In this document: positions 1 through 22,094 of the stretch, piece by piece
Position numbering within the stretch: position 1 is the first letter of the stretch
How the letters are laid out: every line of letters begins with the position of its first letter
DNA from: Rhodospirillales bacterium
GTDB lineage: Bacteria; Pseudomonadota; Alphaproteobacteria; Bin95
Assembly (NCBI GenBank): GCA_038143065.1
Contig: JAYQLI010000003.1
Coordinates: 1 to 24,013, forward strand
DNA: 24,013 nt
Direction of reading: 5' to 3'
Translations under genes and position numbers: made by a program
Notes under the pieces: generated by a model
Told to the model about the DNA's origin: nothing
What the model saw: the letters and a program-made list of their open reading frames with translations, nothing else
Database searches by the model: none

Positions 1-36
1 AGCAAGTTTGTGCAAAAGTTTTACGATCTGCTGTGC

Positions 37-1224
37 TTAAGCGACCAAACAAAGCTGCCGCGCCCATGCCTCCGCCAACACACATGGACGTGTCCTGCAT
101 ATTTTACTCCCCGCCGCCTCCCCTCAAGTAGCGCGTGCCCGACTTGTCTCGCGCCTGTCATACCATAGGGGTGGCCAATCGAAATGGCACCGCCATTCAC
201 GTTGTAAATTTCTGGATCAATCCCAAGATGGTCACGGCAATAGAGAACCTGGCACGCAAATGCTTCGTTCAGTTCCCAAAGGCCGATGTCTTCGTGCGAA
301 GACCTGTGTTCTTCAGAAGTTTTTGGAATTGCATAAATCGGCCGACACCCATCTCTTCCAGTGCGTTTTTCCAGCAACCTTTGCCATACCGCGATAGATC
401 CCAAAGGTGTGAGGCCTTGTTGCTCAGCCATTTTGCCTTCCATGAGCACACAAGCCGAGGCCCCGTCAGAAAGTTGGCTTGCGTTTCCGGCAGTGATCAC
501 ACCGCCTTCGACAACCGGTTTCAATGACCCAAGTGTTTCAGCCGTTGTACCTGGCCGATTGCCTTCGTCTTTTGACAAAGTTACATCCTCTAGGTTTTCC
601 TCTCCGGTTTCGCGGTTTTTTAACCCGTTTGATCGCAGTGATTGGAACGATCTCGTCATCAAAGGCGCCAGCGGCCTGGGCGCGAGCGGTCCGGTCTTGG
701 GAAAGTGCAGCGTATTCATCCTGAGCGTCGCGGCTAATCCCGTAGATCCGCGCCACATTTTCCGCCGTCATCAGCATCGGCATATAGGCATGCTCAGATC
801 AGGCGATAACGTTTGGATCTTTCTCATCGCCCGCCCATTTCAAATAGGCATTCTGCAGGGCGGAAATATTCTCCTGCCCGCCCGCTACGGCAACGTTCTG
901 CCCATCCACATAATCTGCTTTGCAGCCGTCGCAATGGCCATCAACCCGGAGGAGCATTGCCTGTCGATCGTCTGTCCTGCCACCGTATTGGGAAGGCCAG
1001 CAGCAAGCGCAGAAAGCCGGGCGACATTCAGCCACCCCGTTCCTGCTGTAAGGACCGATCCGATAACAACATCTTCGATCGAACCAGGGTCCACACCTGC
1101 ACGTTCAACCGCGTGCTCAATGGCGTGCCCCATCATGGTAGGGGATTTTGATGTTGTTCAGCGCACCTTTGAAGGCAACCCCAATAGGGGTTCGTGCGGT
1201 TGAGACGATAACGGCTTCTCTCAT
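37..1224 (-). CDS. Acetyl-CoA C-acyltransferase (thiolase), frameshifted
   Basis: Stitched from ORFs 885..1136, 538..783, 269..451 and 21..758. It begins [15 protein letters not shown] and contains the catalytic DRQCSSGL, NEAFA, GHPYGMTGAR and C-terminal MCVGGGMG motifs. The ATG at 1224 overlaps the upstream stop (ATGA). Confidence 0.93.
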
Positions 1225-3350
1225 GTTTTTTCCTTTTTGTCATCAAAATACGCATCAAGTGTCACGCCCGAGGTTGCAAGTTCTTTCAACAAAGGCGAAG
1301 GCGTGAACCACATCTCGCCATAGGCACCCTAGCGATTGCCGGTGTTGGTTCATGCGTTCCAATCTGGCTCAATCCAATCTCGTCGGCATAGTGCATTGGG
1401 CCGCCACGCCACTTCGGAAAGCCATAGCCATTAACCCAGATCAGGTCGCAATCACCCGGGCGCGTTGCAATGCCCTCTTCAAGGATGAGAAGCCCTCGTT
1501 GATCAAGGGGAAGACACATCGCTCAAGGATTTCCTGATCGTCGATGGCCCTGCGCTTCACGCCATGAAGGTCCGCCAAATGGGCACTGATTTGAACAATC
1601 TCAGGGTCTTCAACCCGTGTCCGGCCGTCGTAGACATAGCTTCCTCGCCCGGTTTTCTGACCCAGTCGGCCCAGTTCAAACAACCTGTCCTGCACAGCCT
1701 GGTATGTCGGGTCATGCGCGATTTCAATACGCCGTTCCTGACGCACGCGTGCGCCCACATCAACTCCGGCCAGATCTGCCATCGCATGAATGCCCATGGC
1801 CATGCCAAGCCTTCAAGGACGTCATCCACCTGTTTCGGCGTCGCCCCCTCTAGAAGCAGACGGGATCCTTCGCGGAAGTATGGTTCCAGCATCCGGTTTC
1901 CAACAAAGCCGTAGCACACGCCAACCGTGACAGGGAGCTTTCGGATCTTCTTTGCGACCGTGATTGCCGTTGCAATGACATCGGGAGCGGTCTTGGCGCC
2001 CCACACCACCTCCAGCAAGCGCATGACATTGGCCGGGCTGAAGAAATGGAGGCCAATCACATCCTCCGGACGTGACGTGACTGCGGCGATTTCATCAAGA
2101 TCCAATGTCGATGTGTTTGAGGCCAGTATCGCGCCAGGTTTTGCGTGTCGGTCCAGGGCTTCAAAAATCTGGCGTTTGACATCCATGCTTTCAAACGCCG
2201 CTTCAATGATCAGGTCGGCCTCTGCAAGGTCGCCGTAGCTTAGCGTCCCGGTGGCGTTGGCGGCGATTGCCTCTGCCCGATCGGCACTGAGCCGCCCTTT
2301 TTGGCTCGCGCGCTGGAAATGCTCCCGGACATTTTCCAGTCCCTGTTCGAGCGCGCCTTGCGTCGTTTCAGAAGAGTGACCGGATACCCCGCCTGCAGAA
2401 AGGCGATGGCAATGCCGCGTCCCATTGTTCCGGCACCAATCACGGCGACCGATTTAATATCACGTGGCTGATCCGCACGGGTAACGCCCGGAACTTTGTT
2501 GCATTCACGCTCTGCAAAGAACAGGTGTCGGCCCGCGCGCGATTGAGGTGTGTCGAGCAGTTCAGCGAAACCTGCCTTCTCTTGTGCCAACCCCTCGGAC
2601 ATCGGCAATTCACACGCAGCCTTGATGGATTCCAAGCAACGTTCAGGGGCAACAAGGTTTTTGGACCTTTGCGCAATCTGGTCTCGGAATTCCCTCGAGA
2701 AAACCTTTTGGATCAGGGTGTGTGACGGTCATATCCGCACAACTGCGTTTCGGATCGCCCTCATGGCTGACACGGGTGGCAAAACCCAAAACATGCGTGC
2801 TAAAATCTTGGTCATTCTCAAACAGCGCGTCAACCGGTCCGCAAGACAGGGCGTATTCACCTTTCACGGGATCACCCGAGAGGATCATCCGCGTTGCCGC
2901 TTCCAGACCCACAATCCGTGGTAGTCTTTGTGTGCCACCTGCACCGGGCAGTAGCCCCAGCTTAATCTCGGGCAGGCCCATCACTGCATCCGGCGTGGCG
3001 ACACGGCAATCACAGGCAAGCGCGATCTCCAGCGCACCACCCATCGCAGGGCCAGCTATCGCTGCAATAACTGGTTTTCGGCAGGCTTCAATCATTAAAC
3101 ACACGTCTGGTAGATCGGGTGTTTCCAAGGTCCGGTACGAAACTCCACAATATGCCCCTCCAGAAAAGAGTGACAGATTTGACGTAATAACAATAGCTTT
3201 TACAGAATCATCATCAACCGCGCTCTGTAAGTATTCAGTTAATGCTCTACGCATGGTCAAATCGAGTGCATTGATCGGCTTAGACATCATTGTTATTACG
3301 GCAATACCATCGGAAGTTTGGTAATTAATTATATTCGCATTATAGATCAT
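1221..3350 (-). CDS. Bifunctional enoyl-CoA hydratase / 3-hydroxyacyl-CoA dehydrogenase (FadJ/FadN-like), frameshifted
   Basis: Crotonase motifs [11 protein letters not shown] and [19 protein letters not shown]. Rossmann motif [12 protein letters not shown], then [24 protein letters not shown] and [12 protein letters not shown]. Spans ORFs 2643..3350, 2240..2635, 1557..2186, 1441..1803 and 1286..1519. Confidence 0.92.
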
Positions 3351-4060
3351 CAGCTCTCACACGCGCTGCAGTTTTATCGGCAAAAGCTATTAACCTGTCG
3401 TTTGCTTCAGGTTGTGTATTGACCACTCCCAAAGCTTCCATATAAGATGCATCAAGAGCAGACATGTTCCGCGTATGAGAAATCGTTGAGCAGACCGAAG
3501 TTTGAAAGTGAGGGTATTTTTGCAGCAGCTTTTGCAATTTCGATTGCTCTGGTATCACTTGTTTTCGAATGGCAAAGCTCACTCAACGCTTCCTTTATAG
3601 GTGCGCCCAGTCAGCATCATTCAATCATGCACCCGGCCAATAAGCTCGGGAAACCCGAATAGTTGCCCCACCACCGGTAAACAGACCACGCTGCCCTTCG
3701 GGGCAGTTTGGTCAGCCACTCGAATATGCTAATTCAAGGCCACCGCCAACGGTCGCACCTTTCAGAGCTGCAATGACAGGTATTCCACCATATTCAATCT
3801 TGTTGAATGGAAATTCTCAGAGCGTTGCTCTTTTTGGTGTTCAATTAAATCTAGACCTGCAGAAATGCTCTCCTTCTGCTCGCAATACAACAGCCTTGAA
3901 TCCAAGATTAGGAAGTTTTGAAAATAATGAAATTATTTCCTCAATCGTTTCAATATTGAGTGCATTCCGCTTGGCTGCCCGATTGAGACTAACAATAGCG
4001 ATATTTGTGTCTGCTGACAATTATATTCCTAAACTTAGATACTGGTAGCTGCATCTGCAT
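3340..4060 (-). CDS. dmdD: Methylthioacryloyl-CoA hydratase DmdD (crotonase family); has indels and apparent multi-codon deletions, possibly a pseudogene
   Basis: Hand translation gives [78 protein letters not shown] and a C-terminus [37 protein letters not shown]. These closely match Ruegeria pomeroyi DmdD as I recall it. Confidence 0.85.
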
Positions 4061-4115
4061 ATCTGAAACTTTCCGATGAAAAATGGTTGTACTTTTGATC
4101 AAATCATTAATTGTT

Positions 4116-4789
4116 TTATTGTTTGGTAAGGTAGATCTTTGCCCAGTCGTCGAAATGGATCACGTTGCAGGGTGAATTCACGTTCTCGAGCCAGACAAAG
4201 ACCGAGATGAACGGTTGGTCATAGACCCGGGTGGCGTGGGGTCGCCAGCGGCATTCCAAATTAATGATCCAGCCGGATAATCCTGCCATTCATGAGTGCC
4301 AAACCGCCACCCCGATTTTTCGGACAGGTTCAGATAAAGCTCTGGCGCGTCGTGGTTGTGGTCGCGATACAGCGTCCGTGGACCCAGCATGAAAATGCCA
4401 AGGTTGAAATCGGGATGGTGATGTCCACATGCGTCTGGCCCAATTAGCAGAGTATGCAGGTTACACTTTGTGTATCCCTCTCCCAAATCGGCACCGGGGG
4501 GATAGAATTGGGCTTTGTCTTCGCGCCAGATCAGATCATCCTTGGCTGCTTTCAGGCAATCTGCGATATCCTGCAATTCGGGAGCGACAATCCCGGCGAT
4601 GGCGTTCTTCAGAACCTCATCGTGCCGGGTTCCTTGGGGAGGTAATCAATGAGCCTCTCGCCAAACATGATCCATGGCTGTCAGCTTGTCCAACGTCAGA
4701 TCAACGCCGCGCGTGGCAGCTCTGTGAGCCTGCAAATAGGTGACAATGGACCCGATAAGCGCCTGAATACGGCGTTGCTTGTCTGTCAT
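4116..4789 (-). CDS. DMSP-lyase-family cupin (DddL/DddQ-like), frameshifted
   Basis: Starts MTDKQRRIQALIGSIV (ATGA overlap with the ligase stop at 4786). Core LHTLLIGPD..FNLGIFMLGPRTLYRDHNHDAPELYLNLS carries cupin motif 1 (HxH-x4-E-x-Y type). Motif 2 is PAGSLIWN..PHATRV, and the protein ends ..FISVFVWLENVNSPCNVIHFDDWAKIYLTKQ*. Confidence 0.75.
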
Positions 4790-6384
4790 GATTTTAAGTC
4801 CGAGCGCGTTGAAAGGTCTTGACGCACGAGTTTCTTGTCGAGCTTGCCGACGCTGGTTTTAGGTAGGCGGTCGACAAAGATTAATTCGTCTGGAACTGCC
4901 CATTTTGAGATCTCGCCTGCGTCAACACGCGACTGGATTTCTTCCATGACGCTCAAGCGCACAAGATCCGGGTCGGCATCCTCTGATTTGAGCGACAACA
5001 CCGGCCTTTCGCCCCATTTCGCGTGCGGCAACCGATTGCTGCGACGTCCTCAACGCCGCTACAAGACGATGCTATGTTTTCCAGTGCCAGCGAGGATATC
5101 CATTCGCCGCCGGTCTTGATTACATCCTTGAGACGGTCAGTAATCTGCAACGATCCATTCTCGCGGATATACCCAACATCCCCGGTATGCAGATACCCAC
5201 CGTCCCAAAGCTCATCAGAGGCTTGCGCGTTATCCAGATAGCCTTGTGTCAACCAGGGAGCCCGCGCAACAACTTCGCCGGTTGTTTCACCGTCATGCGG
5301 AACGTCTTTCATATCCGGTGTCACAACTCGAAGGTCGACAAGAGGGCCGGAAAACCCGGTTTGCGCCTGCACCTCAGGATCGTTGCTGGACAAATCGGCC
5401 ACCGTCAGAAACGGACAGGTTTCGGACATCCCATATGCCGCATGCAAGGATATACCTGCCGTCGCGGCGCGGGTTTGCAGACTGCGCGGCAAAGCGGCCC
5501 GCCAATGATTACTTTCCATCTATGCAGGTCAGTTTGCGGGCAGTTGGGATGGTCGAGCACCATTGACAGAACCGTGGGCACGCAGTGGGAAAGGTGACAT
5601 TTTCGTCTGAAATCAATCGCAGGATTATGTCAGGGTCATATCGACCGGGATAGACCTGACGCAGCCCCAGCATCGTTGCGGCATAGGGAAATCCCCAACC
5701 GTGGACGTGAAACAAAGGTGTCAGCGGCATGTAGACGTCGCCGCGATGAAATCCGGCGTTTCGGGCCACGCACCAAAGCCGGCGATCAGGCCCAACGTGT
5801 GAAGGACCAACTGCCGATGTGAATAGCTCACCCCTTTGGGATTGCCGGTGGTCCCGGTTGTATAGAACAAGGTTGCCGTTTGGTTTTCATCGAAGTCCGG
5901 GAAGTCAAAGCTTTCTGGGGCCTCGCCTATCCACTCTTCATATCCTTCTCCGTCTCCAATCGGCACAATGATGATATCCCGATCAAAGCCCGACTTGATA
6001 TTATCAATGAACGGCATGAAATCGCGGTGCACGATAATCAGATCCGGCTGCCCATGGTTGATCGTATAAAGAACCTGCGCAGGAGATAGACGGACGTTGA
6101 TCGTGAAAAGGGTCGCACCCATCATGGGGATCGCGAAAAAACACTCAAGATAACGGTTTGTATCCCAATCCATGACACCGACGCGCATGCCCTCACGTAT
6201 CCCGCTGGCCTTTCAGAGAATGGCAAGTTGGTGCACGCGTTTGCCAAACGTCCTCGTAGCTCAATCGCAATTTGCCGCCGCTGACGATTTCTTCGCTGGC
6301 TGACGCAAGCTGGGATCTGGCCAACAAGTGTTTGATCAGCAACGGATAGCCATATGCATTTGATGAAGGTGACAATATTGGCAT
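4786..6384 (-). CDS. Fatty acid--CoA ligase, DmdB-like (methylmercaptopropionate-CoA ligase of the Pseudomonas PA4198 type), frameshifted
   Basis: N-terminal AYGYPLLIKHLL, then VMDWDTNRYLECFFAIPMMGA, the AMP-binding motif FYTTGTTGNPKGV, YGMSET, LHTGDVG, DRLKDVIKTGGEWISS and LPKTSVGKLDKK. Confidence 0.88.
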
Positions 6385-6440
6385 CTAGGTCAAATCCTTA
6401 ACAATCTTTATCTGTATCAACTCTGGCATTTCATACCCTG

Positions 6441-6482
6441 TTTTAGAATTGAAACAAATTTCTTTTCATCAAAAATTCTAAC
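6441..6482. promoter_or_regulatory. Candidate LysR binding region between the divergent ligase and LysR genes
   Basis: AT-rich intergenic stretch containing TTAGAATT (6443-6450), its inverted copy AATTCTAA (6474-6481), and a T-N11-A box within ATCAAAAATTCTAAC (6468-6482). Confidence 0.4.
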
Positions 6483-6624
6483 CAATCAATCGTACCATTA
6501 ATTGCGTTTTATCCCCTGACAGGCTACGAAAAAATTAGCAAAACCTCGCTCAAATCGCGCCCGTTGTCGGATAACTCTGCTTGAGGGTTTTTAGAGATAA
6601 AGGTTTCATCAAGGAGAGCAATCG

Positions 6625-7546
6625 ATGTCACGCATATGCCCACGCTGGTTTCACTGCGCGCTTTTGAGGCGGTGGCGCGTCACAAGAGTTTCCGAAAGGC
6701 CGCTGACGAGATTTGTGTAACGCATGCGGCAGTCAGCCACCAGGTCAAAGCATTAGAAACATCAATCGGCGTTAAACTACTGGAACGCACAAGCCGTTCG
6801 GTCGAACTGACAGTGGCTGGTGAGCAGTATTATCCGGCAGTTCGCGAACACATTCAGGGAATTATCAAAGCCACGCGGCGCATCCAGGCACCTGAGGAAC
6901 CGGACGTGTTGCTCGTTCAGTCCTACGCAAGTTTCAATACAATGTGGTTACAGCCCAGATTGGCTGAATTTCTTCAGGACAATCCGAACACACGCGTGCG
7001 CATAGTCTCTACCTTTGAAGACGGTGATTATGACATGCACCGGTTCGATGTGGGCGTGTTCAACGCGCCACCATTTGACAAACGGTTTAACTATAGCCCG
7101 TTATTCGAAACGGATATCTACCCGGTTTGCGCGCCAGAGGCTTTCAATTCCGCAAGCGGCGGAATGCCACTCGAAGAGCTTAGAAATTACTTATTGTTGA
7201 GTGTCCCAAGCACATGGAATGAGCCGGATGACTGGGACTGTTGGTTGGAGGCTGTAGGCTTAGATCGCGAACCGATGAAATTTGGCTCAATCTTCGATAA
7301 CTACCCTCTTGTCCGCGAAGCCGTTTTAAACAATCACGGTATCAGCGTCGCAAGGGCACCGTTCTGCGCGCGTGATCTTGAGCGGGGTCGCCTGGTCAAA
7401 CCGTTTGAAATTTCAGTGCCCGAGCCAGGCCGCTGGTATCTGGTGACGCAAAAGAACGTGCACCCAACCCCAAGCTCGATACATTTATCGACTGGCTTTA
7501 CGAACAAATCGAGGCCGACCCGACCATGCGGTTCTTCCGGTCCTGA
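6625..7546 (+). CDS. LysR-family transcriptional regulator, GcvA subfamily
   Basis: HTH region LRAFEAVARHKSFRKAADEICVTHAAVSHQVKALE and substrate-binding domain WLQPRLAEF..DLERGRLVKPF. A frameshift near 7470 restores the end KLDTFIDWLYEQIEADPTMRFFRS* (TGA 7544-7546). The start is at 6625 or 6636. Confidence 0.92.
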
Positions 7547-7621
7547 TCTGTTAAATCCCAACTATGCCTGTTAGCGCGTTCCGGATCACCACAGACCTTC
7601 TCGGGGTATTTTTCCAGCCAC

Positions 7622-8588
7622 TCATTTCGTGTGCATGCGCTTTTTAGTTTCGCGCACACGTTTCGTTGCCTCGCGGCTGCCGTCATGAAAGCTTCGAACC
7701 AGTTGTCCCAAGGCATTTCCGGGCCGCCATAATTACATTCGAAATACCGGTGATGCAGTTGATGGTGGAACGACCCGATCTTCAGGTGGGCCTTATCCCC
7801 AAGCACCAGGTTTTCGAAACCCGGCATGCGACGTGGCTGAACCAAGAATATCCAATGAAGAGAAAGTGGATGGGATGCGCTGGCACAACCAGGAAGATCA
7901 GCAGCAAACTTAAATAGCCGACATGCTCGATCGGATGCATGGAAAAGCCTGACCACGGTGCAATGAAACACTACGGTGATGCACAGAAACGCGCTTGTAG
8001 ATCCATGGGATGTGCAGTGCGCGGTGCAGCCAGTAGAAATGGAAGGACTGCGCAACAGGCAACAACAGGAACATGGCAAAAAACCAGATCGGATTGCTCT
8101 GGGCCGTGATCATCGGCGCCCATCCATTGGCGTAAGCCATCCAAACAATAGTATCATAGAACGTCCAGACCGTCACGCCAGATAGGAGCGCAGGTGACAT
8201 TGTCCCAATATTGATCGTTCCAGAGGAAGATGCGGGCATTCTTGGCTAATCCGCGCCGGTCGAACTTGTAATCTTCGTCCTGCTTCTTCCATCCGTAAAG
8301 CCACAGGTGCAGTCCTTGGGCAAAGAAGATCATCAGGATCAGGTTGCGCGCCCAAAGCTGCAAAACCCATGTAAGCGCTGCATCTGCTCCAAGGGTGGCA
8401 CCTTCGATGGTAGGCCATCAGCGTGTAGATTAGGTATTCAGTGAGGAGCCAGTTGGTCGCAAACCACCGGAGCGTAGCTATGGCCTTGGTGGCCATGAAA
8501 AAAGCGGCGTCACCGCTACGGGCAAATCCGGATGCCAGTTCCATTCCTTGCTGATGCCTGCTTTCAGATGCTCATCTGTGTCGGACAT
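7622..8588 (-). CDS. Sterol desaturase / fatty acid hydroxylase family membrane di-iron enzyme, frameshifted
   Basis: Starts MSDTDEHLKAGISKEWNWHPDLP. His boxes HFYWLHRALH, HHRS and FHHQLHHRYFECNYG, followed by PWDNWF. Confidence 0.85.
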
Positions 8589-8988: not shown

Positions 8989-10061
8989 CTAGGTCCGATC
9001 AGTGCGCGTGGGACGTCGCGTACCCGCTTCAGGTGCGACGCGAGGGACAAGAGCGCGAACCAGTTCGATCATATCCAGTGTGCCGACCGTCTGCTCCCCA
9101 TCTTTGACGACATAGGCGTGTGTCGTATCTCCACCGGACTGCGCGATCACGCTTTCAAGTGTGTCGTTCACGTCCACCTCGCCATGTGCACCATTTGGCA
9201 CTTTGTTCCCACTAACCGGGGTCATGATCGAGCGCACCCGCAGAACCCGTGCGCGGTTGATGTCGCTTACGAAGTCTTCGATGTAGGGGTCGTTGGGGTT
9301 CAGCAGGATATGCTGCGGCTCGCCCTGTTGCACGACAAAGCCGTCCTTTAGGATCACAAGATGATCGGCCAGCTTCAGCGCCTCATCGAGATCGTGAGTG
9401 ATGAAGATGATGGTCTTGTGCAGCTCTTTTGCAGCTCGAGCAGTAAATCCTGCATGTCGGTCCGGATCAGCGGATCAAGGGCCGAGAAAGCCTCGTCCAT
9501 TAGCATGATCGGTGTGTTTGCGGTCAGTGCTCGGGCAATGCCCACACGCTGTTGCATCCCACCAGACAACTGCGCTGGATAATGGTTCTCAAACGCGTTC
9601 AAACCCGCGATCCAGCCATTTCGCGGCTTCGCGGTCGCAGGTGGCCTCGTCCTCGCCACGTACCGACAGGGGCATGCCTGCGTTCTTTAGCACAGTTTTG
9701 TGCGGCAAAAGTGCGAACTTCTGGAACACCATCGACATCTTTTCCTGGCGGGCATGGCGCAGCCATCTTCCGGACAGTTGCATCACGTCTTCGCCCTGCA
9801 CGATGATCTCGCCCGCAGTGGGTTCGATCAACCGGTTCAGGTGGCGGATCAAAGTAGATTTTCCAGAACCGGAAAGGCCCATGACCACTGTGATTTCCCC
9901 AGCCTGCATATCCACATTGATGTTGTTGAGTCCCAGAACATGTTTATGCTGCGTCAGCAACTCAGCTTGCCCATACCACTCTGAACATGGCGCAAAGCGT
10001 CTTTGTCGCGGGCGCCGAAGATCTTGTATAGCCCACGAATACTGACCATTGGTTGTGTCAT
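8989..10061 (-). CDS. Glycine betaine/proline-type ABC transporter ATP-binding subunit (ProV-like)
   Basis: Walker [10 protein letters not shown], signature [15 protein letters not shown], Walker [14 protein letters not shown], and [15 protein letters not shown]. Confidence 0.92.
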
Positions 10062-10073
10062 TAAACTCGCTCC

Positions 10074-11103
10074 TCAGTGTTTAACTTGGGCCTTATCGAC
10101 CCGTGTGAGCGCTGCTTTGGACACGCGATCAAGAATTACGGCCAGCATAACGATGCCTAGACCAGCAACGATGCCTACACCCAATTCCAAGTTTCTGATA
10201 CCGCGCAGAACATTTACACCTAGACCAGGCGCCGACACCAGAGAGGCAATCACGACCATGGCAAGGCTCATCATGATGGTCTGGTTGATTCCGGCCATGA
10301 TGTTCGGTAGCGCCAGCGGCAATTGCACTCGCATAAGTTTCTGACGGTCATTCATACCAAAAGCATTTGCAGCTTCTAAAACGTCTTGGTCTACAAGGCG
10401 GATGCCAAGGATCGGTCAGACGGATTACTGGCACAATCGCGTAAAGGATAATCGCAATTCCATAAAGTTTGGACTCCGTGACCGAGAACAAGAAAATCAG
10501 AGGGATCAGGTATACAAAGGTCGGCAAGGTCTGCAGCAGATCTAGTAGCGGAACAACGCTTTTTTGCAATCGATCAGATTTCGACATGGCAATTCCAATG
10601 GGCACACCGAACAGCACCGATATCGCCGTACATACAAAGATGATTGAAAGGGTTTGCATCGCCACATCGTAGTGGTCGACGAGGGCCAATAGCATAATCG
10701 CGACCGCGACAAAGATCGTCACAGGACGCGATCGCGACGCGTACCACGAAATCGCAACCAGAAGCGGAACCATGATGAACCACGGCATCGCTTCAAACAG
10801 CCAAAGTGCGCTATCCAGCATCCAGCTTAATGGTTGTGTGATCGGGTCTAGGACATTTTTTAGGACCGGTTTGGCCGCCAGAAATCCTTCTTCTATTCCG
10901 TTGGTTACATCGCGCGACTGCCATATGCGGTTGCAGCTTTCATGAAAATTATCAAACGAAGGAATAGGAAAGAACGGCTCAGACGTCTTTTCTCCTCCTG
11001 CTTGCGCCGCAAGGTCCGCGAGCGAAAGAGGCGCATTGTCATCTGACGTGCCACACCAGTCGCTCAAACCCAATGCGCTGAATAACTTGTCATAGAAGGC
11101 CAT
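10074..11103 (-). CDS. Glycine betaine/proline-type ABC transporter permease (ProW-like)
   Basis: Motifs PLLDLLQTLPTFVYLIP, PVIRLTD and VQLPLALPNIMAGINQTIMMSLAMVVIASLV. Frameshift near 10410. Confidence 0.92.
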
Positions 11104-11133
11104 ATAACGCTTTCCGATCTACTTCAGTGCGTT

Positions 11134-11157
11134 AGGGGCATCGCTTAGGATGCCCCT
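11134..11157. terminator. Intergenic stem-loop between the binding-protein and permease genes (mRNA stabiliser or partial terminator)
   Basis: Perfect 9-bp stem AGGGGCATC-gcttag-GATGCCCCT. Confidence 0.6.
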
Positions 11158-11171
11158 GTCCATGCAGTTTA

Positions 11172-12141
11172 CTACAGCAATGCGGAAAGTTTATCTCGCG
11201 CAGCATCGTTAAGCCACGCCCCCACACATCCTTATAGGTTGTTAAGAAATGCACCGCGCCCTCGTCGTAGGAAGCATCGTTATCTTCAACCCATGCCAGT
11301 GTTTCACTCATTTGAGAGTTTGTGAAGGGACAGGTTTGTCATGAGCGAACTGATCGCTTGGTTTCTGCCATAAATTCTTTAAAGACCGTCACAACCAAAC
11401 TACGAGGGAACCCACTCATGGCAGGCGTCTCGCATTCCGCAGTACTGTTGCAGGCCCATACCTCTGCTTTTGTGCTCACCCATTTCGACCAAAGTCATCG
11501 GATACTTACCTAGTACAGATGTCGGTCCCCAGTAAAAAGCCAAACCACGGTTCCTTGTTTCTCGTAGGCCGAAGCGATCGAGGCCGCAAGAGTTTCGCCG
11601 GAACCATGCACAAAGTTTTCAACACCAACGTCAATTAGTCCGCCTGCCTTGAGCAAATTGGTGCTGACGTTCAGGCACGTCCATCCCTCTGGACAGTTGT
11701 GAAAGCGGTTCCCGACAAGCTTGGGATTAGCTGTAATACCTTCTAGTGTTGCTAGTTCTGGGTGTTTCTCGACAAGGTAGTTTGGAACAAAAAATCCTTC
11801 CACACCACCATCTGACAAAACTTCTGTCACAGGAATAATTGCGCCAGATTCAACTAAACCTTCGTATGCTGGGGCACCATTTGTCCAGATTTCTGTTAAA
11901 AAATATCAGGCTCTCCAGTCTCGGATACAGATGCCAGGGCAGGGTTAGATGAAAGCGGCACTGTGGTAACTTCACATCCGTAACCTTCCTCCATGAGGAA
12001 CTTGGCAACCGCAGTAACGATTTGTGCAGATCCCCAATCACCTTGCATAATTGATACTTCACCGCATTCGTTTGCCTGGGCCGCTGAGGCGGTGATTGCC
12101 GCGGCAAATACACACCCGAGTCCCGTTGAAATCTTAAACAT
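11172..12141 (-). CDS. Betaine-type ABC transporter substrate-binding protein (ProX family), frameshifted
   Basis: Signal peptide followed by ECGEVSI..DWGSAQIVTAVAKFLMEEGYGC, GGVEGFFVPNYL, FHNCPEGWTC and HGSGETLAASIASAY; ends WLNDAARDKLSALL*. Confidence 0.9.
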
Positions 12142-12281
12142 TTCTTTCCTCCTTGTAATTGACGAAGTAAGACCGAAGAAAAGCTCCGAGCCATCGTTCG
12201 CCTTGTTTGTAAAAAAATTCTAGTGACAAGCCGATGAGCAAAAAACTGAAAAGAATTTAAGTTTTATGAATCTTGAACACT

Positions 12282-12298: not shown

Positions 12299-12394
12299 TT
12301 CACTTTCAAAGTCTTCGGGAGTGTTTTTTACGGAATTTTGTTCTCCAGTGGCAACACGGTAACACTTGCATATCATCGCATACAGTTTAGCACT

Positions 12395-12476
12395 GTCACA
12401 CACCCGTCACACAGACATTGACGAAACGGGTATTTTCATGAGATCTTACACTCATAAAGTTGAAACATGGTGTGAC
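12395..12476. repeat. Candidate integrase arm-type repeats next to the tRNA-Met att core
   Basis: GTCACACA direct repeats at 12395-12402 and 12406-12413, with an inverted GTGTGAC at 12470-12476. Confidence 0.45.
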
Positions 12477-12508
12477 ACTAGAAAACTGAGAGATTTGTTT
12501 GAAAACAA

Positions 12509-12556
12509 TGGCAGCGGAGGAGGGACTCGAACCCCCGACACGCGGATTATGATCCG
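12509..12556 (-). other. 3' half of tRNA-Met(CAT), an integrase attachment-site remnant rather than an intact tRNA
   Basis: The reverse complement is CGGATCATAATCCGCGTGTCGGGGGTTCGAGTCCCTCCTCCGCTGCCA: anticodon loop with CAT, T-arm GGGGG-TTCGAGT-CCCTC, and a CCA end. There is no D-arm or 5' acceptor strand upstream. Confidence 0.85.
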
Positions 12557-12734
12557 TTATTCCAAACAAAATTATCCTTTACACCTCCACCAACCATCAA
12601 GCCCGAGGTCAAGTGCAACATCCGGCCCAATCTAGACCCCACCCCTCTAATCAAGTCCAAAGCTGACAGCGAAACGGCTCCAGTAACCCCGGCGCTCCGA
12701 GGTTAGGTTCCAGTCGCGAACTCTTGAAACTTCC

Positions 12735-12756
12735 TGTAGACAAGGTTGTAGACAAG
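12735..12756 (+). repeat. Integrase arm-type tandem repeat TGTAGACAAG x2 (12-bp period)
   Basis: Copies at 12735-12744 and 12747-12756, about 90 bp from att core A. The same motif and period occur at 14079-14099 on the minus strand. Confidence 0.65.
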
Positions 12757-12847
12757 CTTTGTGCTTTAATTGCCAGAAATAATCTAATAAACTGGCTGAA
12801 TAGTGGGAGTTTTTAGACTTGAACTTCCTCGCACAGGCATCGAACTT

Positions 12848-12896
12848 GCCCCCGGGCACCACTTCTTCATAAAAAGAGCCGAGGTTCGAGGTTCAA
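12848..12896 (+). repeat. att core A (tRNA-Phe 3'-end-like GCCCCCGGGCACCA) plus flank; left arm of a ~50-bp inverted repeat
   Basis: GCCCCCGGGCACCACTTCTTCATAAAAAGAGCCGAGGTTCGAGGTTCAA is the reverse complement of 14141-14190, apart from one homopolymer G. Confidence 0.9.
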
Positions 12897-12934
12897 GTCT
12901 CTGAATTATGGAATCTTCGTTCTCTGAACTTAGT

Positions 12935-14091
12935 TTATCCCTCCAGCATCTTCATCCACCGATACTTAACGGCCAGATCATAACCACTTCCATATTTATG
13001 GCCTATGCCAGCAGTTGTCCAACCGCCGATGGCGTCAATGATGTCTGGAAGGGCATTCAACTGCCCTTAACCTGTCTCTCAGACTATGCCTAAAGCTATG
13101 GATAACGCAGCCCTCTGGTATCCTTGGTTTAAGCCACTTGTTCAAAGCAGCGCTGGCAGAGTTGGCATTGCACTTGGTCTCGTCGCAGTATCTGGCAAAA
13201 GCATATTTATGACCGACATCGACAATCCTTATTGCCGCTTCATACGCGCTCCCCACTAATGGAATATCTCTTTCACTAGAAGCCGTTTTCAATGACCGCC
13301 ACGGGTGCTTGCGGAGTGTTATGTGGGGCACATCTGTATCCAGTTGAATGTCTTTAAAGCTCAGGGAGGACCGCAGCTTCTGACAATCTCATGCCAGTAT
13401 CACTTATGATTGCGATTAGCCAACGCTGAGGGTCATCAACCTGAGAGCACTCATGCAGATGGATAACCGGATGGCATCCAGTGGTACGGGCAACCGCCAC
13501 TAGCTGCATTATCCTCTGGAATGAATATCCCTGAGAAGGGATTGGGGTTGGCTATGCCAAGCTCCTTAGAGGCTAGGTTATAGATAGCCTTAACAGAGGA
13601 CAGAACACGCCTAATCGAGGTTGATGCCAAACCCTTAGCAATGAGATAGTCCCTGAACTGACCAGCATTGACGGTTTTGATTGATGATAAATCAACATCA
13701 CCGACACACTCTATTAGGTAGCCGACATTGCGCGTTGATGTTTTTGAATAGGCACGATCCGTCCTGCACCCTTGAGCCTGGATGTAAAGTTCCCAGAGCA
13801 TCGCTGATATTCGTGTCCGCACTATCTAATGGTGCATCTGGAGCACCGCCAAACTTCAGGCCAAGCTCTTGTGAATGAAACCGTTCCAGCCTGAGTGACT
13901 CAAAATATCTCTCAAGCCTATCGGATAGTGCGAAAGCTGCTTTCTGCGCTTTAACCTCTGACCGTGTTTGCAAAGACACAACCACACGGTTCTTATTAAA
14001 CCGCGCCTTTAAATCGGAAGGCACATTGCGTGTGAAGTAATAGATGCCATTACGGCGGTATAGATAATCTGGCGACCCTTGTATACACCAT
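12935..14091 (-). CDS. Tyrosine recombinase/integrase with DUF6538-like N-terminal arm-binding domain, frameshifted
   Basis: N-terminus MVYTRSPDYLYRRNGIYYFTRNVPSDL, then ANPNPFSG. Catalytic residues in DTGMRLSEA (R), LKTASSERDIPL (K), HSFRHSLRDRLR (HxxR), IGGW and HKYGSGY (Y). Stop TAA at 12935-12937. Confidence 0.92.
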
Positions 14092-14140
14092 TGTCTACAG
14101 CCCCTGTCGTTCCTCAAACGTTAATTAAAGGAATTAGAGA

Positions 14141-14190
14141 TTGAACCTCGAACCTCGGCTCTTTTTATGAAGAAGTGGTGCCCGGGGGGC
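14141..14190 (-). repeat. att core B (tRNA-Phe 3' end) plus flank; right arm of the ~50-bp inverted repeat
   Basis: TTGAACCTCGAACCTCGGCTCTTTTTATGAAGAAGTGGTGCCCGGGGGGC. Confidence 0.9.
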
Positions 14191-14602
14191 GGACTAATTG
14201 CCTTTGTACAGCACCAATGCACATCTCACTGTTTGTACTTTCAATAGGGTTACGTATTGGTTAGTCACTGTCACAGGCACGAAGCGTGTACATCAGTTTG
14301 TACATCAGTACGGGTGGGCATGATCCACCCCCTTGCCACACGTATATATACATAGACAATTACACAGATCAGTCTCTGACACTGTTAACCACTATCAGTT
14401 GTCATTTGGCGTAATTCAATGAATCACTAAAATGCCCATAAACGTGTTTAGGCAAAGCTGGTGCCTAAATACGAGTGATAGTATTTGTGATCTTTTAAAT
14501 GGGTGTGATAGAATGACAGAAATGACAAAGAAAATGGAAAGTCATGAGAAGAGTTGGCAGAGGTTTGGTGGATTTAGCTGTCATTCCTGTCATTTGTGTC
14601 AT
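14173..14602 (-). repeat. ~430-bp element-end repeat, copy 1 (att core, arm repeats, hairpins, iteron array)
   Basis: Colinear reverse complement of 22095-22529. Contains TGTACATCAGT x2 (14287, 14299), GGGTGG-N7-CCACCC, TTTAGGCA-N7-TGCCTAAA (14447-14469) and ATGACA/TGTCAT iterons (14513-14602). Confidence 0.95.
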
Positions 14603-14749
14603 ATTTTGTTTTTACGTATAGCGCCTTCTACCTGTTTGCGAAACCTATTTAGCATTACCGTTGGCACTTCAAAATTACATTGAAGTTTTAGAGTGCTCTT
14701 TGACATTTCTAATACTTGTAGAGTTAAACTTTCTGTTTAGGATTAACTT

Positions 14750-15116
14750 ATTTTTTTTGTTCATGTTTTTTATTTCATTGGTTGGCCGTAAAATTACTTC
14801 TTCTAACCCCCACTTCGTATCCAGTTGATTGAAGCGCAATTTAGTATTCTTCAATCGCTAATAAATAAAATTTTTGTCCCGTATCGCAAAGTTGAATAAA
14901 GGTTGCTGTTCGCCGCCTTTACATGAAAGGACTCTAGTTCTTGGTTCTTGAAGTTGGAGATCCAATAGACCATCGGACAAATCCAAATGACATTCATGTC
15001 CCGCATGACAATCATACCAAAAAGACGGTGGGTAAAATTTCAACTCAGCCATCGAGGCAGTTGGTGAGTTCACAAGTAGCAAAATTGTCAGAATTTTTGA
15101 TCACAGTTATTCGCAT
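14750..15116 (-). CDS. Hypothetical exported protein, frameshifted (3' end uncertain)
   Basis: Signal-peptide-like start MRITVIKILTILLLVNSPTASMAELKFYPPSFW; overlaps ORF 14858..15082. Confidence 0.4.
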
Positions 15117-15399
15117 TTTGTTGGCCCAAAAATACTTAGTGGAATAGACACCGCTGACAAAAAACCAAGAACACAGGTATCAAAAAATCTGCTCTAACAT
15201 TGCATCTATTGGTAATTGACTTCTTTAATCCAGCCTCTGCCATCCCATACATAACCAAAATCTTGTTTAACTAAATCATAGAAGTCTTTCTGGTGTCTTT
15301 GGCATCACCATAAACGACAATCCAAGTATTTTCAATTTTTTCAAGAAGATCTTTATCTTCATTTTTCATTTGCAACTATCAACCTTTCCACTTTTGAAG

Positions 15400-16664
<1,265 letters not shown>

Positions 16665-17049
16665 GTTTCAAACCCCAAAGGATATGGCCTTTGTTGCAGT
16701 GGCCCAGCCCCTCATATCTTAGACAACCTTTTGGCGTAAAACATTGTCATTCTTGAAATTGGGGGGGATGTGAGTAATTCTGGCCTTCAAGAAAATATTA
16801 TAAATGCCCTGAGCCAGTTAACGATAGGGTCACGCCAATATTCATCCACGGTTTCGCAACCTCATCATGCCACTCTTGTTTATAGATTTCACCGAACCGG
16901 TGTCAGCATTTGCGGATATAACCTAGTGACCAAAAAAGCGCCAATTACCAATCTGACCAACTAGGCCCCATATTTTAATTTTGATTTCTCATAAACTCCC
17001 AACCTAGTTAAGTCAACGGCTATTTTGTTGTGATATTTTCCGCTTCACA

Positions 17050-17508
17050 AATTTCCAGGAAATCGTTTTTGACTGAAAAATAACATTCCTTTTTCGTAAT
17101 GATAAGTCATGTAATCTTTTGTCTGCGCGATATTTTTTCCATTTCTTTTGATTATTTTTTTAAATTCGTTAAACGCGCAATCTCTGACTTTTTGTCAGGT
17201 AAAAAATTGGATTTTGTGGATTTCCAGATCATACGAAAAGAAAGCGGCATGAGCACCTCACGTATCAAGGCTTGTATTTTCAACCGCCGTTTCCATTACT
17301 TCTTCAGGTCCATCACCTTTTTGTCTTCGCAGCTGCTATCAAACCATCTGCTATTGTTTGAAGTTCCGTCCTCCACAACCAACGCCGATGCCACCAACTT
17401 TTCATGTTTATTCATTTTCGTAATCACTAGCGATAGTTTGTGGTACGCCATCCCAATACTGATAATCTTGATTAAATCTATCTGCCCACCTCTGAAATTA
17501 GTGTTCAT
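17050..17508 (-). CDS. Hypothetical protein, frameshifted, co-oriented downstream of the ADP-ribosylglycohydrolase
   Basis: ATG about 12 bp after the upstream stop. Fragments read MNTNFRGGQIDL.., WRTELQTIADGLIAAAKTK and AFNEFKKIIKRNGK. No recognisable motif; boundaries approximate. Confidence 0.35.
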
Positions 17509-17519
17509 GTTTCGCAACC

Positions 17520-18713
17520 TCAAAAATACCAATTCGTGTCGTATCTGCCGATATCATCCAAAGCCAAGTGCATAGACGGTTTTGAGGCATCAAGCGGATC
17601 AAATATGATCGCCGATTTTTCCTCAATTATGCGAATACACTTTCCCCGGATATATCCATCCATGCGTCCAGCAAGGGTTAGTTGAGCCGAATGGCCCTCC
17701 GGCCCATAATGTTGCTGCTCCACCGCCGTAACTAGCAAGTGGGTGAATGCATAGACAACTGTGACCTGCTACCTCATAGGTTTTTCCTGCCTCTGGGCCT
17801 TGTATATCCAGAAGAGTTTCGCTTACCCTCTGCAACTCTTCCCTTAAGGTCGTCTTGTTTGCGACCTGCAAAAGCCCAATGGTGTATTCTCTGATTTGTC
17901 TACCCCACTGAAGACCTTCAATCATCCAATTCGGAATAGCATCAAAGCCGTAGATGGCTCCAGCAATCATCCCCACAACAGCACCTGTAGTATCACTATC
18001 ATGCCCACGATTGATGGCTTCAATGATGCAATCTTAAAAGTTGGTAGTGGTTTGAAACGCCCACCACGCAGCTTGGTATGTTTCTTTAACATATCCGCCA
18101 GACATCACTTCATTACGGGCAACAGTGTTTGGGTGTTTGTATCCGCTGTTCTTTTTCAGAGGTTTGCGCAGCCACAATTCTTCGGCAAGTAGTTTGCTGT
18201 ACAGAAGCGCTTCATCGGCTCCATGTGTAAGTCTTGTGGACTCTTCTGCCCACTTTATGGCCTCTGAAAAACACCCTGCTCAATAACAGCTGGTGCCAGT
18301 CGCATCAAACCACCATTGCCTGCACTCATTGGGTCGGTCTTACCCGTGTAGGGGTTTGACCCATCAGCCTCGTATGCAGCCAACGCACTGTATACTGTGT
18401 TGCCACAATCAAACATAATTCCACGGGGTGAATACGCGCCCTCATTTTTCCATTTGAGGAAATTGCCCATGATGGTGTGTGGGTCATAGGTTTTCTTTGT
18501 GGTGATGGCATCAGCCATAGCCAACGCCATTGAGGTGTCATCCGTAAATTCGCCCTTTGATACGTTATGCGCACCACCAGTCATGTATGACCGTATATAA
18601 TCTTCAGGTTCACGTGATGGCTGAAACTCAATCGGCGCACCCATAGCATCACCAATGGCAAGACCAAACATCATGCCTAATGCCCAATTTTCTTGGTGGG
18701 TCAAATCAGACAT
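17520..18713 (-). CDS. ADP-ribosylglycohydrolase (DraG/ARH family) with C-terminal extension, frameshifted
   Basis: Motifs GLAIGDAMGAP, FTDDTSMA, SAGNGGLMRLAP, TRLTH, SGGYV and GHDSDTTGAVVGMIAGAIYG (metal-binding TDDT and DSDT). The reading continues about 100 aa past the fold, to 17623 or, with one frameshift, 17520. Confidence 0.9.
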
Positions 18714-19385
18714 TGGACACGCCAAAAAGTTTTGGTTCGGGTGATATAATTTTGCAGGGCGGTGGGTCCCCGTCTTAACATCACCTGTTTCTTCGACTAG
18801 GCCAACGCCGTCATACTTCTCCACCCATTGCCTGAAATTGCGCTTGTTATGAGGGGCATATTTATCGCCCGCCAAAGCAGCAAACGTTTGCTGTAGTTCT
18901 GTCAAAGTGAAGTCACCTTCGTGGAAAGCAAACACAAGATTTGGCTTACTTTCCACGAGGTAACCAACCAAGAGATGTGCATCTTTGCAAATTTGATTGT
19001 GATCAAATGCAAGCTGCGGTGTTCCCGATATGGGGAACCACTTTACGTCTGATACATCTGTATCAGCACGAAGCTGTAATTCATCAGAAGGCTGAATAGC
19101 CATATAGGCTACAGAGATAGTTTGTTGGCGATGGTCCCTTTGAGGATCGCTATAGTTCTTGAAATGCTCGATGTAGGGAGCAGCAACGCCTGTTTCTTCT
19201 TTGAGTTCTCGCAAGGCACATTCATCAAGGCTTTCTCCCTGCTGTAAAAAGCCTCCCGGCAAAGCCCACAAACCATCGTCTTTACGTTTAACGCAAAGGA
19301 TGTGGAGTTCACCCTGTCGAAGGGTAAATAGAACCACATCAGTTGCTACCGATGGATGCCAGAAATCTGATTCAAAATATGCCAT
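18706..19385 (-). CDS. nrtR: NrtR-family regulator (Nudix + winged HTH); in frame with the downstream hydrolase as sequenced
   Basis: PSVATDVVLF, WALPGGF, Nudix box GESLDECALRELKEETG, SDPQRD, LAFDHNQI, and wHTH motifs FTLTELQ, KRNFR and HRPAKLY. Confidence 0.88.
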
Positions 19386-19401
19386 TACGAACTGCCTTAG
19401 T

Positions 19402-19447
19402 TAGTATGTTTTTTATACTATGCATATTTAGTATAAAATCAATACTA
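19402..19447. promoter_or_regulatory. Tandem palindromic operator TAGTAT-N7-ATACTA x2
   Basis: TAGTAT-gtttttt-ATACTA (19402-19420) and TAGTAT-aaaatca-ATACTA (19429-19447), starting 17 bp upstream of the nrtR ATG. Confidence 0.75.
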
Positions 19448-19568
19448 TCATGTCAACAGCTTTTTTGATTTTTTACAATGGCAACTGACAGTTTATCAGT
19501 TACCACTTAACTTGTTGTATAACATATACTTTTATCTTGACTTTGTGCATATCGATCCATAGTAAAAT

Positions 19569-21108
19569 ATGAACAAATGGGCGGTATGCCCAGCGACTTG
19601 CCACAACTTTTGAGTTCAGGTACGGACTGCCTCGCAGCCCACAGCGGCTTGCATTATTGGCTCGTATGGTTGGAGAAATCCAAATCATGACAATAGAAGA
19701 CGACCAAGTCTCAACAGACGTTGAGCAAGCGCATAATGGCGACATAGTCGATATGCGTCTAATAAGACGACCAGAGAATGTGACAGACAATTGGCACTTG
19801 CTGACATTTTTGCCTTTCAGCGGGCAGTTCTTGGGCAGTGTTCTCATCAACTTTGTCCTGATAAGCACTGGTATTTGTGGAATGGTGAAAGGTGGCAGAA
19901 GGACAAACAAAACCCAGATGCTCCTGCGTTCTGCGGAGTTTGTTCGGGAAATAGCCAAGCTAGCTGTTGACTGTGACGAACCTGATATAGCCAGACGATT
20001 TTAGGTTCAGCAAAACCTGATCTGCTCAAAGGCTGAGAACCTGAAAAACTAGCTAAGCCAGTCTGATTAGGTATCATCTCACTGACTTTGATGCTCATCC
20101 AATGCAGCTATGCGTTGAGAATGGTGTCATTGATCTAGCGACTGGTAAGCTACTGGACCCAGAACCATCAATGCATCACAGCAAGATGGCTGGTGTAGCT
20201 TATGATGCCATGCCATTGTTCGCTTCATGCAGTTCCTCAAGGACATCTTTCCTGATGACCCAGAACTGCTGGAATATGGCCAGTGCAAAAGGTAGCTGGC
20301 TATGCACTGACAGGAAGCACGAGGGAGCAATGCTTGTTCATGCTACTTGGAGGTGGCGCCAATGGTAAGTCAACTTTGGTTAGTCTGCTGACGAAGCTGA
20401 TGGGTGACTATGCTGCCAATACAGCAGCCAACACCTTGATGGCTAGCAACAGCAATCAGGTGGGTGATGATCTGATCAGACTGGCTGGTGCTAGGCTTAT
20501 CACCGCAGCAGAGACTGAGCATGGTCAGCGTTTTGCTGAAGCTAAAATCAAGTCCTTTACTGGCGGTGATATGATCAGCGCCAGACCACTCTATGGTGAG
20601 TGGGTAGACTTCAAAGCCTGTCGGCAAGATACTGCTTACCACCAACAACCGGCCTGAGATACGTGGGTCAGATGATGGTATCTGGAGGCGTATTCGGGAG
20701 ATACCATTCAACAGGCAATTCACAGAGGCAGAGCAGGACAAGGAGTTGATGACAACATTGACCCAAGAACTGCCCGGTATCCTGAATTGGGCGATTGAAG
20801 GCTGTCTGCTTTGGCAAGCCAATGGACTGTCTGCTCCAGCATCGGTGATGGCTAGCGTTTCTGAATATCGCAGCGAGATGGATACAGTCTGCTCGTTCAT
20901 CGTGGATGAATGCATCGTTGCTGCACATGAACGCATTCCAGTTGGGAACCTCTACGAACAATATGTCAGTTGGTGTAGATCTTCTGGCAAGCACCCTCTT
21001 AGCAAGGTGCAGTTTGGTAAGGCACTGACCAGTCAAGGCTATGCGGAGCAAATCCGTGGCAGTAATGGACGCTACTGGCGAGGTTTGTCCATTAGCATCA
21101 CTGGCTAA
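19569..21108 (+). CDS. P4-family/D5-like primase-helicase (D5 N-terminal + SF3 helicase + wHTH), frameshifted; start could be 19569, 19666 or 19687
   Basis: D5_N motifs HWYLWNGERWQKD and DFDAHPMQLCVENGVIDLATGKL. Walker A GGGANGKST, then LAGARLITAAE, IKSFTGGDMISARPLY, TNNRPEIRGSDDGIWRRI, ELPGILNWAIEG and LYEQYVSWC. Confidence 0.88.
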
Positions 21109-21216
21109 CAAAACGATAAAGGCGGGGCGAGAAATTGCTCGCTTTCACATACAGGTTTCGGTTGTGTTTTCGTCAAAATGAAATGACCATCCTATCCTCA
21201 TAATTTCAGAGCAAAA

Positions 21217-22063: not shown

Positions 22064-22094
22064 AATGCCCTCATCTAATGAGATCCTTCCCCCA

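Follow-up and report, generated by a model that had tools for sequence, protein, structure and literature searches.

We analysed the first 24,013 bases (the window) of contig JAYQLI010000003.1 from assembly GCA_038143065.1 of a Rhodospirillales bacterium (4.63 Mb in 52 contigs), with a focus on the gene cluster at positions 37-6384. With a probability of roughly 0.6, this cluster represents the dddU cluster already known from marine bacteria of the roseobacter type, in a rarer five-gene form located on an island beside an integrase, and the breaks in its reading frames are most likely insertion/deletion (indel) errors. DddU is a cupin lyase of dimethylsulfoniopropionate (DMSP) that was reported in 2023 from Amylibacter (now Neptunicoccus) cionae H-12 (PMC11497337). 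Below, C3 is the contig of the window, C22 and C35 are other contigs of the same assembly, and L-numbers refer to the DddU loci that we fetched. The five genes, in the order in which they would be transcribed, are:

4786-6384, minus strand: AMP-forming acyl-coenzyme A (CoA) ligase, broken; Pfam AMP-binding on two fragments
4116-4789, minus strand: dddU, cupin lyase of DMSP and dimethylsulfoxonium propionate (DMSOP), broken at three places; Pfam DMSP_lyase
3340-4060, minus strand: dmdD-type enoyl-CoA hydratase, heavily gapped; weak ECH_1 match on a 59-residue fragment
1222-3350, minus strand: FadB-like enoyl-CoA hydratase/3-hydroxyacyl-CoA dehydrogenase, broken; Pfam ECH_1, 3HCDH_N and 3HCDH on fragments
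37-1225, minus strand: thiolase (acetyl-CoA C-acyltransferase), broken, with its ATG at 1225-1223; Pfam Thiolase_N and Thiolase_C on fragments

Judged by its sequence, the cupin is DddU. An earlier reading of the window made from the letters alone (the initial annotation) had placed it in the DMSP-lyase family, and this was confirmed by the Pfam DMSP_lyase match and by a fragment that is 95-97% identical to 228-residue DddU-family proteins of Aliiroseovarius, Tritonibacter, Yoonia, Neptunicoccus, and others. The published criterion for membership is >70% identity to H-12 DddU (PMC11497337). Three pieces of the window protein are 85%, 82%, and 70% identical to the N. cionae protein of locus L025, and a tblastn alignment with the L021 DddU gave 89% identity over residues 1-185. 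The metal-binding and catalytic residues reported for DddU, His146, Glu150, Tyr152, and His185 (PMC11497337), are all encoded. The first three lie in one frame and His185 in another, past a 1-base deletion near 4242.

The similarity extends over the whole cluster. More than 20 roseobacter loci match the window DNA at 88-90% identity in both halves of the operon. L025 (N. cionae CGMCC 1.15880), in which the gene order agrees with the locus tags given in PMC11497337, matches it at 88.6-89.6%. The ligase DNA is 90% identical to that of L011, an intact Ruegeria locus. To place the cluster among its relatives, we used 51 DddU loci obtained from a scan of one genome per species and scored their gene content by tblastn with reference proteins at >=50% identity. 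The ligase, DddU, FadB-like protein, and thiolase were found together and in order in 29 of the 51 loci, so the gene order is not due to chance. A LysR regulator was present in 37 loci and the betaine-type ATP-binding cassette (ABC) genes in 22-23. In 12 loci, all of them among the 29 that have the four-gene core, the thiolase is directly followed by an AraC regulator and then an acyl-CoA dehydrogenase. DddU with none of ligase, FadB-like protein, or thiolase was seen in 15 loci, including a few cut by contig ends. When contig-end partials and short remnants are counted, the ligase adjoins dddU in 35 of the 51 loci, and the overlap of its stop codon with the dddU start codon, in the form ATGA, was found in the window as well as in intact loci. 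Short remnants of the ligase, 0.26 of its length in L040 and 0.13 in L045, immediately precede an intact dddU.

The initial annotation had described one co-oriented run of these five genes, and the Pfam domains on stop-to-stop fragments agree with the order it gave, on the minus strand and within 37-6384. The order and the limits of the run were thus borne out, whereas its genes were not recovered as open frames: none of the five is open under translation table 11, a point on which the initial annotation says nothing. The ligase begins with a start codon (Met) at 6384, and its TGA stop at 4788-4786 overlaps the ATG of dddU. Overlaps were indeed found at three of the four junctions, namely ATGA at 4789-4786 between ligase and cupin, 11 bases at 3350-3340 between the small hydratase and the FadB-like gene, and ATGA at 1225-1222 between the FadB-like gene and the thiolase. 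The surroundings of the cluster comprise the following:

6636-7574, plus strand: GcvA-type LysR regulator, divergent from the ligase; Pfam HTH_1 and LysR_substrate
7625-8588, minus strand: gene of the sterol-desaturase/fatty-acid-hydroxylase family, broken; tblastn pieces with the intact L035 protein
9022-12210, minus strand: betaine/choline-type ABC importer, broken; tblastn with L021 proteins
13035-14120, minus strand: tyrosine integrase remnants, island edge; Pfam DUF6538 and Phage_int_SAM on separate fragments

Both neighbours named by the initial annotation, the divergent LysR gene and the nearby betaine-type transporter, were found again at these positions. The LysR gene is an open frame of 312 residues with a 1-base deletion near 7450, and its product is 90% identical to the L021 LysR over residues 2-284. 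The best NCBIfam match of that L021 homologue is the GcvA subfamily, at 245.8 bits and below the cut-off of 288 bits. The parts of the importer, each in pieces in the tblastn alignments, are an ATPase (9972-9022), a permease (11118-10077), and a binding protein (12210-11219), with family names taken from the NCBIfam matches of the intact L021 proteins. In L022 (positions 5700-7750), from a complete Paracoccaceae metagenome-assembled genome (MAG) chromosome, an insertion of about 2 kb interrupts the LysR gene of the cluster.

We compared the window with three known systems. The dddU cluster of H-12 (Wang et al. 2023, PMC11497337), as described there, agrees with the window in gene content and gene order, including the divergent LysR gene and the three ABC genes. 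The window differs in having a dmdD-type hydratase between dddU and the fadB-like gene and a sterol-desaturase-family gene between LysR and the ABC ATPase, in that all of the cluster frames are broken, and in that the host genome, judged by RecA, is not that of a roseobacter. With the demethylation pathway DmdA-DmdB-DmdC-DmdD of Ruegeria pomeroyi, the window shares a DmdD-type hydratase and an AMP-forming ligase of the broad family of DmdB. However, the contig carries neither a DmdA-family (GCV_T) gene nor an acyl-CoA dehydrogenase gene, its ligase falls below the DmdB cut-off, and the lyase, dehydrogenase, and thiolase are foreign to that pathway. With FadD-FadBA beta-oxidation, it shares the ligase, the two-domain hydratase/dehydrogenase, and the thiolase, the last two coupled by the ATGA overlap. 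In contrast to that system, a cupin lyase lies in the middle of the cluster, a betaine-type importer and a LysR regulator accompany it, the FadB and FadJ equivalogs are missed, and the dddU cluster was induced by DMSP (in H-12; PMC11497337).

The absence of dmdA and of an acyl-CoA dehydrogenase gene from the window, as stated in the initial annotation, held. None of the 13 matches to GCV_T, the family of DmdA, in the assembly lies on C3, and tblastn found no acyl-CoA dehydrogenase homologue on that contig, which ends 36 bases past the thiolase stop. Because the window begins at this contig end, the stretch beyond the thiolase is not visible. Elsewhere in the assembly, no AraC gene and no downstream gene of the type seen in L051 were found, and the only dehydrogenases were distant ones on C35 (<=34% identity).

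The small hydratase distinguishes the window from most DddU loci. The spacing between dddU and the fadB-like gene is about 170 bases in most loci and about 930 in the window. A dmdD-type insert was found in the window and in 3 of the 51 loci: L029 (a Pacificibacter MAG), L030 (99% identical to L029, from a MAG labelled Rhodospirillaceae), and L051 (from a Pseudomonadales MAG). In L029, the inserted gene is open, as are those for the ligase, DddU, and FadB. Its inserted protein passes the PRK08150 crotonase subfamily and matches PDB entries 4IZB and 4IZC (E = 1.6e-108 for 4IZB), which we take to be DmdD of Ruegeria pomeroyi. The window remnant is 88% identical at the DNA level to the intact L029 gene, and the small hydratase is probably a dmdD relative, as the initial annotation had it. 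The G+C content of the insert is 0.44 in both loci, compared to 0.50-0.54 in its neighbours in L029 and 0.54 in the window.

The remaining enzymes were placed by family models. The ligase had been called DmdB-like, a name that fits it weakly: both belong to the same broad AMP-forming family, but against the DmdB equivalog (NF005426) the intact L021 ligase scored 374 bits, compared to a cut-off of 822. The L021 ligase passes the PRK06187 subfamily (545 versus 476), and the nearest solved structure is that of an acyl-acyl carrier protein (acyl-ACP) synthetase (8HSY, 542 bits), with 6IHK at 298 bits. A search for the ligase over 401 genomes of the class gave 4 matches, at 39-51% identity and without informative context. 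The DddX-like enzyme of H-12 was also considered as the ligase of the cluster and was ruled out, as it belongs to the ACD family (PMC13543886). The FadB-like protein has hydratase and dehydrogenase domains but scored 453-457 bits against the FadB and FadJ equivalogs, below their cut-offs of 869-870. The intact L021 homologue of the thiolase reached 411 bits (TIGR01930 cut-off, 240.55). The thiolase of the cluster was likened to the CoA-transferase AcuN in PMC11497337, whereas both Pfam and NCBIfam placed it among thiolases.

We next consider the reading frames. The longest frame in positions 1-6400 spans 298 residues from stop to stop, or 245 from a start codon (table 11). An alternative genetic code was rejected as the cause of the breaks, since table 4, TAG read as glutamine, and TAA read as glutamine all leave the frames closed. 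Compared to L011, 42 indel events were counted in 7.6 kb, mostly of 1 base and many at short homopolymers; the coding events number 9 in the ligase, 3 in dddU, 8 in the fadB-like gene, and 10 in the thiolase. Two of those in dddU, at 4646 and 4670, together yield an in-frame TAA. The dmdD remnant differs from the intact L029 gene by 15 events, 11 of which break the frame: 14 deletions of 1 to 27 bases, 92 bases in total, and 1 insertion. Every other gene checked on C3 is likewise broken, including the integrase, trypsin-like protease, NUDIX-NrtR-ADP-ribosylglycohydrolase, and primase-like genes.

Such breaks could be assembly errors, or they could be real and mark a recently inactivated copy of the cluster that is decaying on a degrading mobile island, with the copy on C22 decaying too. 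We consider it likely that they are indel errors. The ratio of nonsynonymous to synonymous substitution rates (dN/dS) compared to L011 is 0.18 for the ligase, 0.10 for DddU, 0.16 for FadB, and 0.08 for the thiolase, and intact loci compared in the same way gave 0.05-0.16. The substitution pattern shows no sign of relaxed selection, which argues against decay, as does the imbalance between about 45 indel events and at most 2 candidate nonsense substitutions. The small contigs of the assembly, moreover, overlap each other at 95-99% identity (for example, C4 with C50, C5 with C9, and C8 with C9), and in these overlaps the ratio of gap openings to mismatches is 0.5-1.26, with two cleaner pairs at 0.02-0.03. 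As natural divergence does not yield one indel per substitution, these differences point to error. Together with a dN/dS like that of intact relatives, the finding that small contigs of the same assembly differ as much by indels as by substitutions is why we read the breaks as errors rather than decay.

Three further comparisons bear on this question. Between the window and the second copy of the cluster on C22, 33 indel events were counted, of which 17 are confined to the window and 16 to C22, with no event common to both. The share of a contig lying in frames of >=250 residues is 0.65 for C35 (2.86 Mb, longest frame 1396 residues), 0.19 for C3, and 0.07 for C22. At 12 listed indel sites of the window, short contigs from seawater metagenomes (four studies) show the state of an intact gene, although they are relatives and not demonstrably the source sample, so that an intact state there cannot prove the window wrong. 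Over positions 3024-3729, these contigs differ from the window by 5 substitutions and 54 gap letters, corresponding to about 99% substitution identity, and the absence of the gaps from such close sequences is a further point against decay. At some sites (for example, 1806 and 2369), part of the seawater depth lacks the inserted letter, where contigs may merely end. No sequencing run was found that contains at least half of the words of the window, with a best share of 0.41, in seawater metagenomes of 12 studies.

Some observations pull away from assembly error. The deletions of 5 to 27 bases in the dmdD remnant are unlike simple homopolymer errors, and the 14 deletions taken together show the deletion bias typical of pseudogenes. 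Up to two in-frame stops may have arisen by substitution, with a single candidate each in the ligase and thiolase genes. Across 26 contig pairs, frame density and indel ratio were only weakly correlated (rho -0.33, p 0.09). Decay would also fit the finding that all genes checked on the 24-kb contig are broken, the integrase and primase-like genes included, and the existence of natural ligase remnants next to dddU in L040 and L045. The lack of DddU in any other genome of the family could likewise mean that the genes are dispensable here. Given the substitution pattern and the redundant small contigs, decay nevertheless appears doubtful to us. If the breaks are indel errors of a poorly supported contig, the living sequence would probably encode intact proteins. 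Split genes were also seen in two other MAG loci, with dddU in two pieces in L051 and both dddU and the FadB-like gene in several in L059; these are probably assembly artefacts of the same kind.

The host of the cluster was assessed with RecA. The RecA encoded on C35 is 85-90% identical to proteins of uncultured Alphaproteobacteria MAGs and about 80% identical to Hyphomicrobiales-type proteins, and on account of these relatives the host is not a roseobacter. DddU was found in none of 36 other genomes of the assembly's family (E 1e-30), which counts against our reading insofar as it concerns the ownership of the cluster. A DNA search of 30 relatives recovered the cluster only in this assembly, on C3 and C22; the other matches, at about 66%, are unrelated thiolase and dehydrogenase genes. 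The lack of DddU in the family, the integrase remnants, and a G+C content of 0.435 over positions 12300-24013 of the window suggest that the contig represents either an acquired island or a mis-binned contig. The copy on C22 (L009, 6300-13050) carries the LysR, ligase, DddU, FadB-like, and thiolase genes without the dmdD insert and is also broken. It is 89-90% identical to the window over the FadB-like gene and thiolase and about 72% over the ligase and DddU, and its DddU shares about 60% identity with the Ruegeria type.

The right half of the window resembles a mobile island, with genes all in pieces at 13035-14120, 15878-16597, 17623-19400, and 20259-21108. They encode a tyrosine integrase, a trypsin-like protease, NUDIX-NrtR-ADP-ribosylglycohydrolase, and a D5-type primase/helicase-like protein. 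An inverted repeat of 430-440 bases with 93% identity was found between 14173-14602 and 22095-22529.

What the cluster does can be approached through work on H-12, one of its cultured carriers, which also include Ruegeria atlantica and Phaeobacter inhibens P66. In that strain, DMSP upregulates eight genes, encoding a thiolase, an enoyl-CoA hydratase, DddU, a fatty-acid-CoA ligase, a LysR regulator, and three ABC proteins. Deletion of dddU lowers the production of dimethyl sulfide (DMS) about 2-fold, and purified DddU makes acrylate from DMSP (PMC11497337). DMSOP is a further substrate of DddU and is cleaved with higher efficiency than DMSP (PMC10686828). A route through acrylate can therefore be proposed for the cluster. 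LysR would turn on the genes when DMSP is present, in keeping with the induction by DMSP in H-12, and the ABC system would import the zwitterion. DddU would then split DMSP into DMS and acrylate, as observed in vitro and in vivo, or DMSOP into dimethyl sulfoxide (DMSO) and acrylate, as observed in vitro. The ligase could convert acrylate into acryloyl-CoA, to which the DmdD-type hydratase, the hydratase domain of the FadB-like protein, or both would add water, giving 3-hydroxypropionyl-CoA. In the last and least certain step, the dehydrogenase domain and the thiolase may process a 3-hydroxy or 3-oxo thioester, which could give acetyl-CoA and a C1 thioester.

This route has difficulties. No role in the use of acrylate is established for either the dehydrogenase domain or the thiolase, and the ligase is nearest to a fatty-acid acyl-ACP synthetase rather than to a ligase for C3 acids. 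H-12 is reported not to grow on DMSP as sole carbon source despite the induction of the cluster, and DddU is reported to be poor on DMSP, with 0.15 per min for the H-12 enzyme and, for PiDddU, a Km of 8 mM and a kcat/Km of 88 per M per s (PMC11497337).

The same observations would suit a different substrate. The initial annotation had proposed that the cluster degrades gonyol, on the grounds that a ligase, a 3-hydroxyacyl-CoA dehydrogenase, and a thiolase without an acyl-CoA dehydrogenase call for a substrate already hydroxylated at C3. In a widened form of this idea, the ligase, dehydrogenase domain, and thiolase would shorten gonyol or another onium acid of C5 or more by one acetyl-CoA, and DddU, together with DmdD in the five-gene form, would finish the resulting DMSP-level product, either DMSP-CoA or DMSP. 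Every enzyme would then have a task, including the thiolase and dehydrogenase that are idle in the acrylate route. The betaine-type importer suits a zwitterion, and also in favour of the idea is a ligase that fails the DmdB equivalog and is closest to a synthetase activating fatty acids. The slowness of DddU on DMSP and the lack of growth of H-12 on it would also be accommodated. The chemistry has a parallel in carnitine breakdown through a 3-oxo intermediate, in which thiolytic cleavage gives betainyl-CoA. There, acetyl-CoA is split off a 3-hydroxy onium acid and a shorter onium thioester remains, as the gonyol idea needs, although the gene families differ, the onium is that of nitrogen rather than sulfur, and the likeness drawn here is one of chemistry. 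Bacteria are reported to consume gonyol by unknown routes (PMC7221440), and in a limited literature search we found no paper tying gonyol to catabolic genes and no publication joining DMSP-CoA with a thiolase.

However, the argument from the missing dehydrogenase does not hold. Acrylate from DMSP cleavage is already unsaturated and needs no such enzyme, the FadB-like protein keeps a hydratase domain, and in 12 of the 29 core loci an acyl-CoA dehydrogenase follows the thiolase two genes downstream, behind the AraC gene. DMSP itself induces all eight genes in H-12 (PMC11497337), and DddU, which cleaves free DMSP and DMSOP, occurs in 15 of the 51 loci with none of the ligase, FadB-like protein, or thiolase. 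In PMC7221440, four bacteria, whose dddU status we did not check, are reported to give no DMS from gonyol. Overall, we regard gonyol or a similar acid as an improbable substrate.

A second alternative keeps DMSP as the substrate but reverses the order of the first two enzymes. By analogy with DddX, which shows that a CoA-ligase route to acryloyl-CoA exists (PMC13543886), the ligase would make DMSP-CoA, from which DddU or spontaneous elimination would free DMS to leave acryloyl-CoA for hydration by DmdD or FadB. The adjacency of ligase and dddU in 35 loci and the ATGA overlap between them fit this order, as does the low activity of DddU on free DMSP (PMC11497337). Nevertheless, DddU alone gives acrylate from free DMSP in vitro (PMC11497337), 15 of the 51 loci have DddU without a ligase, the ligase is AMP-forming and not of the ACD family of DddX, and the thiolase is left unexplained. 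We consider activation before cleavage very improbable.

The gene of the sterol-desaturase family between LysR and the ABC ATPase, on which the initial annotation was silent, is 79-87% identical in DNA to a gene beside LysR or dddU in ten other loci. Its intact L035 homologue is a protein of 333 residues with a Pfam FA_hydroxylase domain, named sterol desaturase family protein in the protein atlas, and we found no solved structural relative for it. In total, such a gene lies near LysR or dddU in 12 of the 51 loci (L022, L035, L036, L038, L040, L045, L049, L050, L052, L054, L056, and L057), and in L054 it directly follows dddU on the same strand. Ten of the copies are 88-100% identical as proteins, even where DddU is only about 60% identical. 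The ligase remnants in L040 and L045 indicate that genes of the CoA side can disappear from a locus that retains dddU and the desaturase-family gene. A fixed partnership with dddU was rejected: N. cionae has no homologue at E 1e-20, and the R. atlantica copy, an 86% orthologue, sits in a different cluster, alongside a second desaturase-family gene, an Ldh_2 gene, and a kinase-like gene. According to PMC10686828, it is not known which organisms or enzymes make DMSOP. Since DddU prefers DMSOP, the neighbouring oxygenase is a candidate for this role, as a lead only.

These results have implications for the dddU cluster and for this assembly. Broken reading frames should be distrusted where they fall on small contigs of this assembly. 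If gonyol were the substrate after all, these would be the first known genes for gonyol breakdown, and the induction by DMSP in H-12 would be induction by an intermediate of the pathway. A form of the dddU cluster with an inserted dmdD-type hydratase exists, and contigs covering the hydratase region are present in seawater, in four studies, at about 99% substitution identity. Apart from the alternative of a mis-binned contig here, the dddU cluster may travel as a highly conserved island into genomes of bacteria that are not roseobacters.

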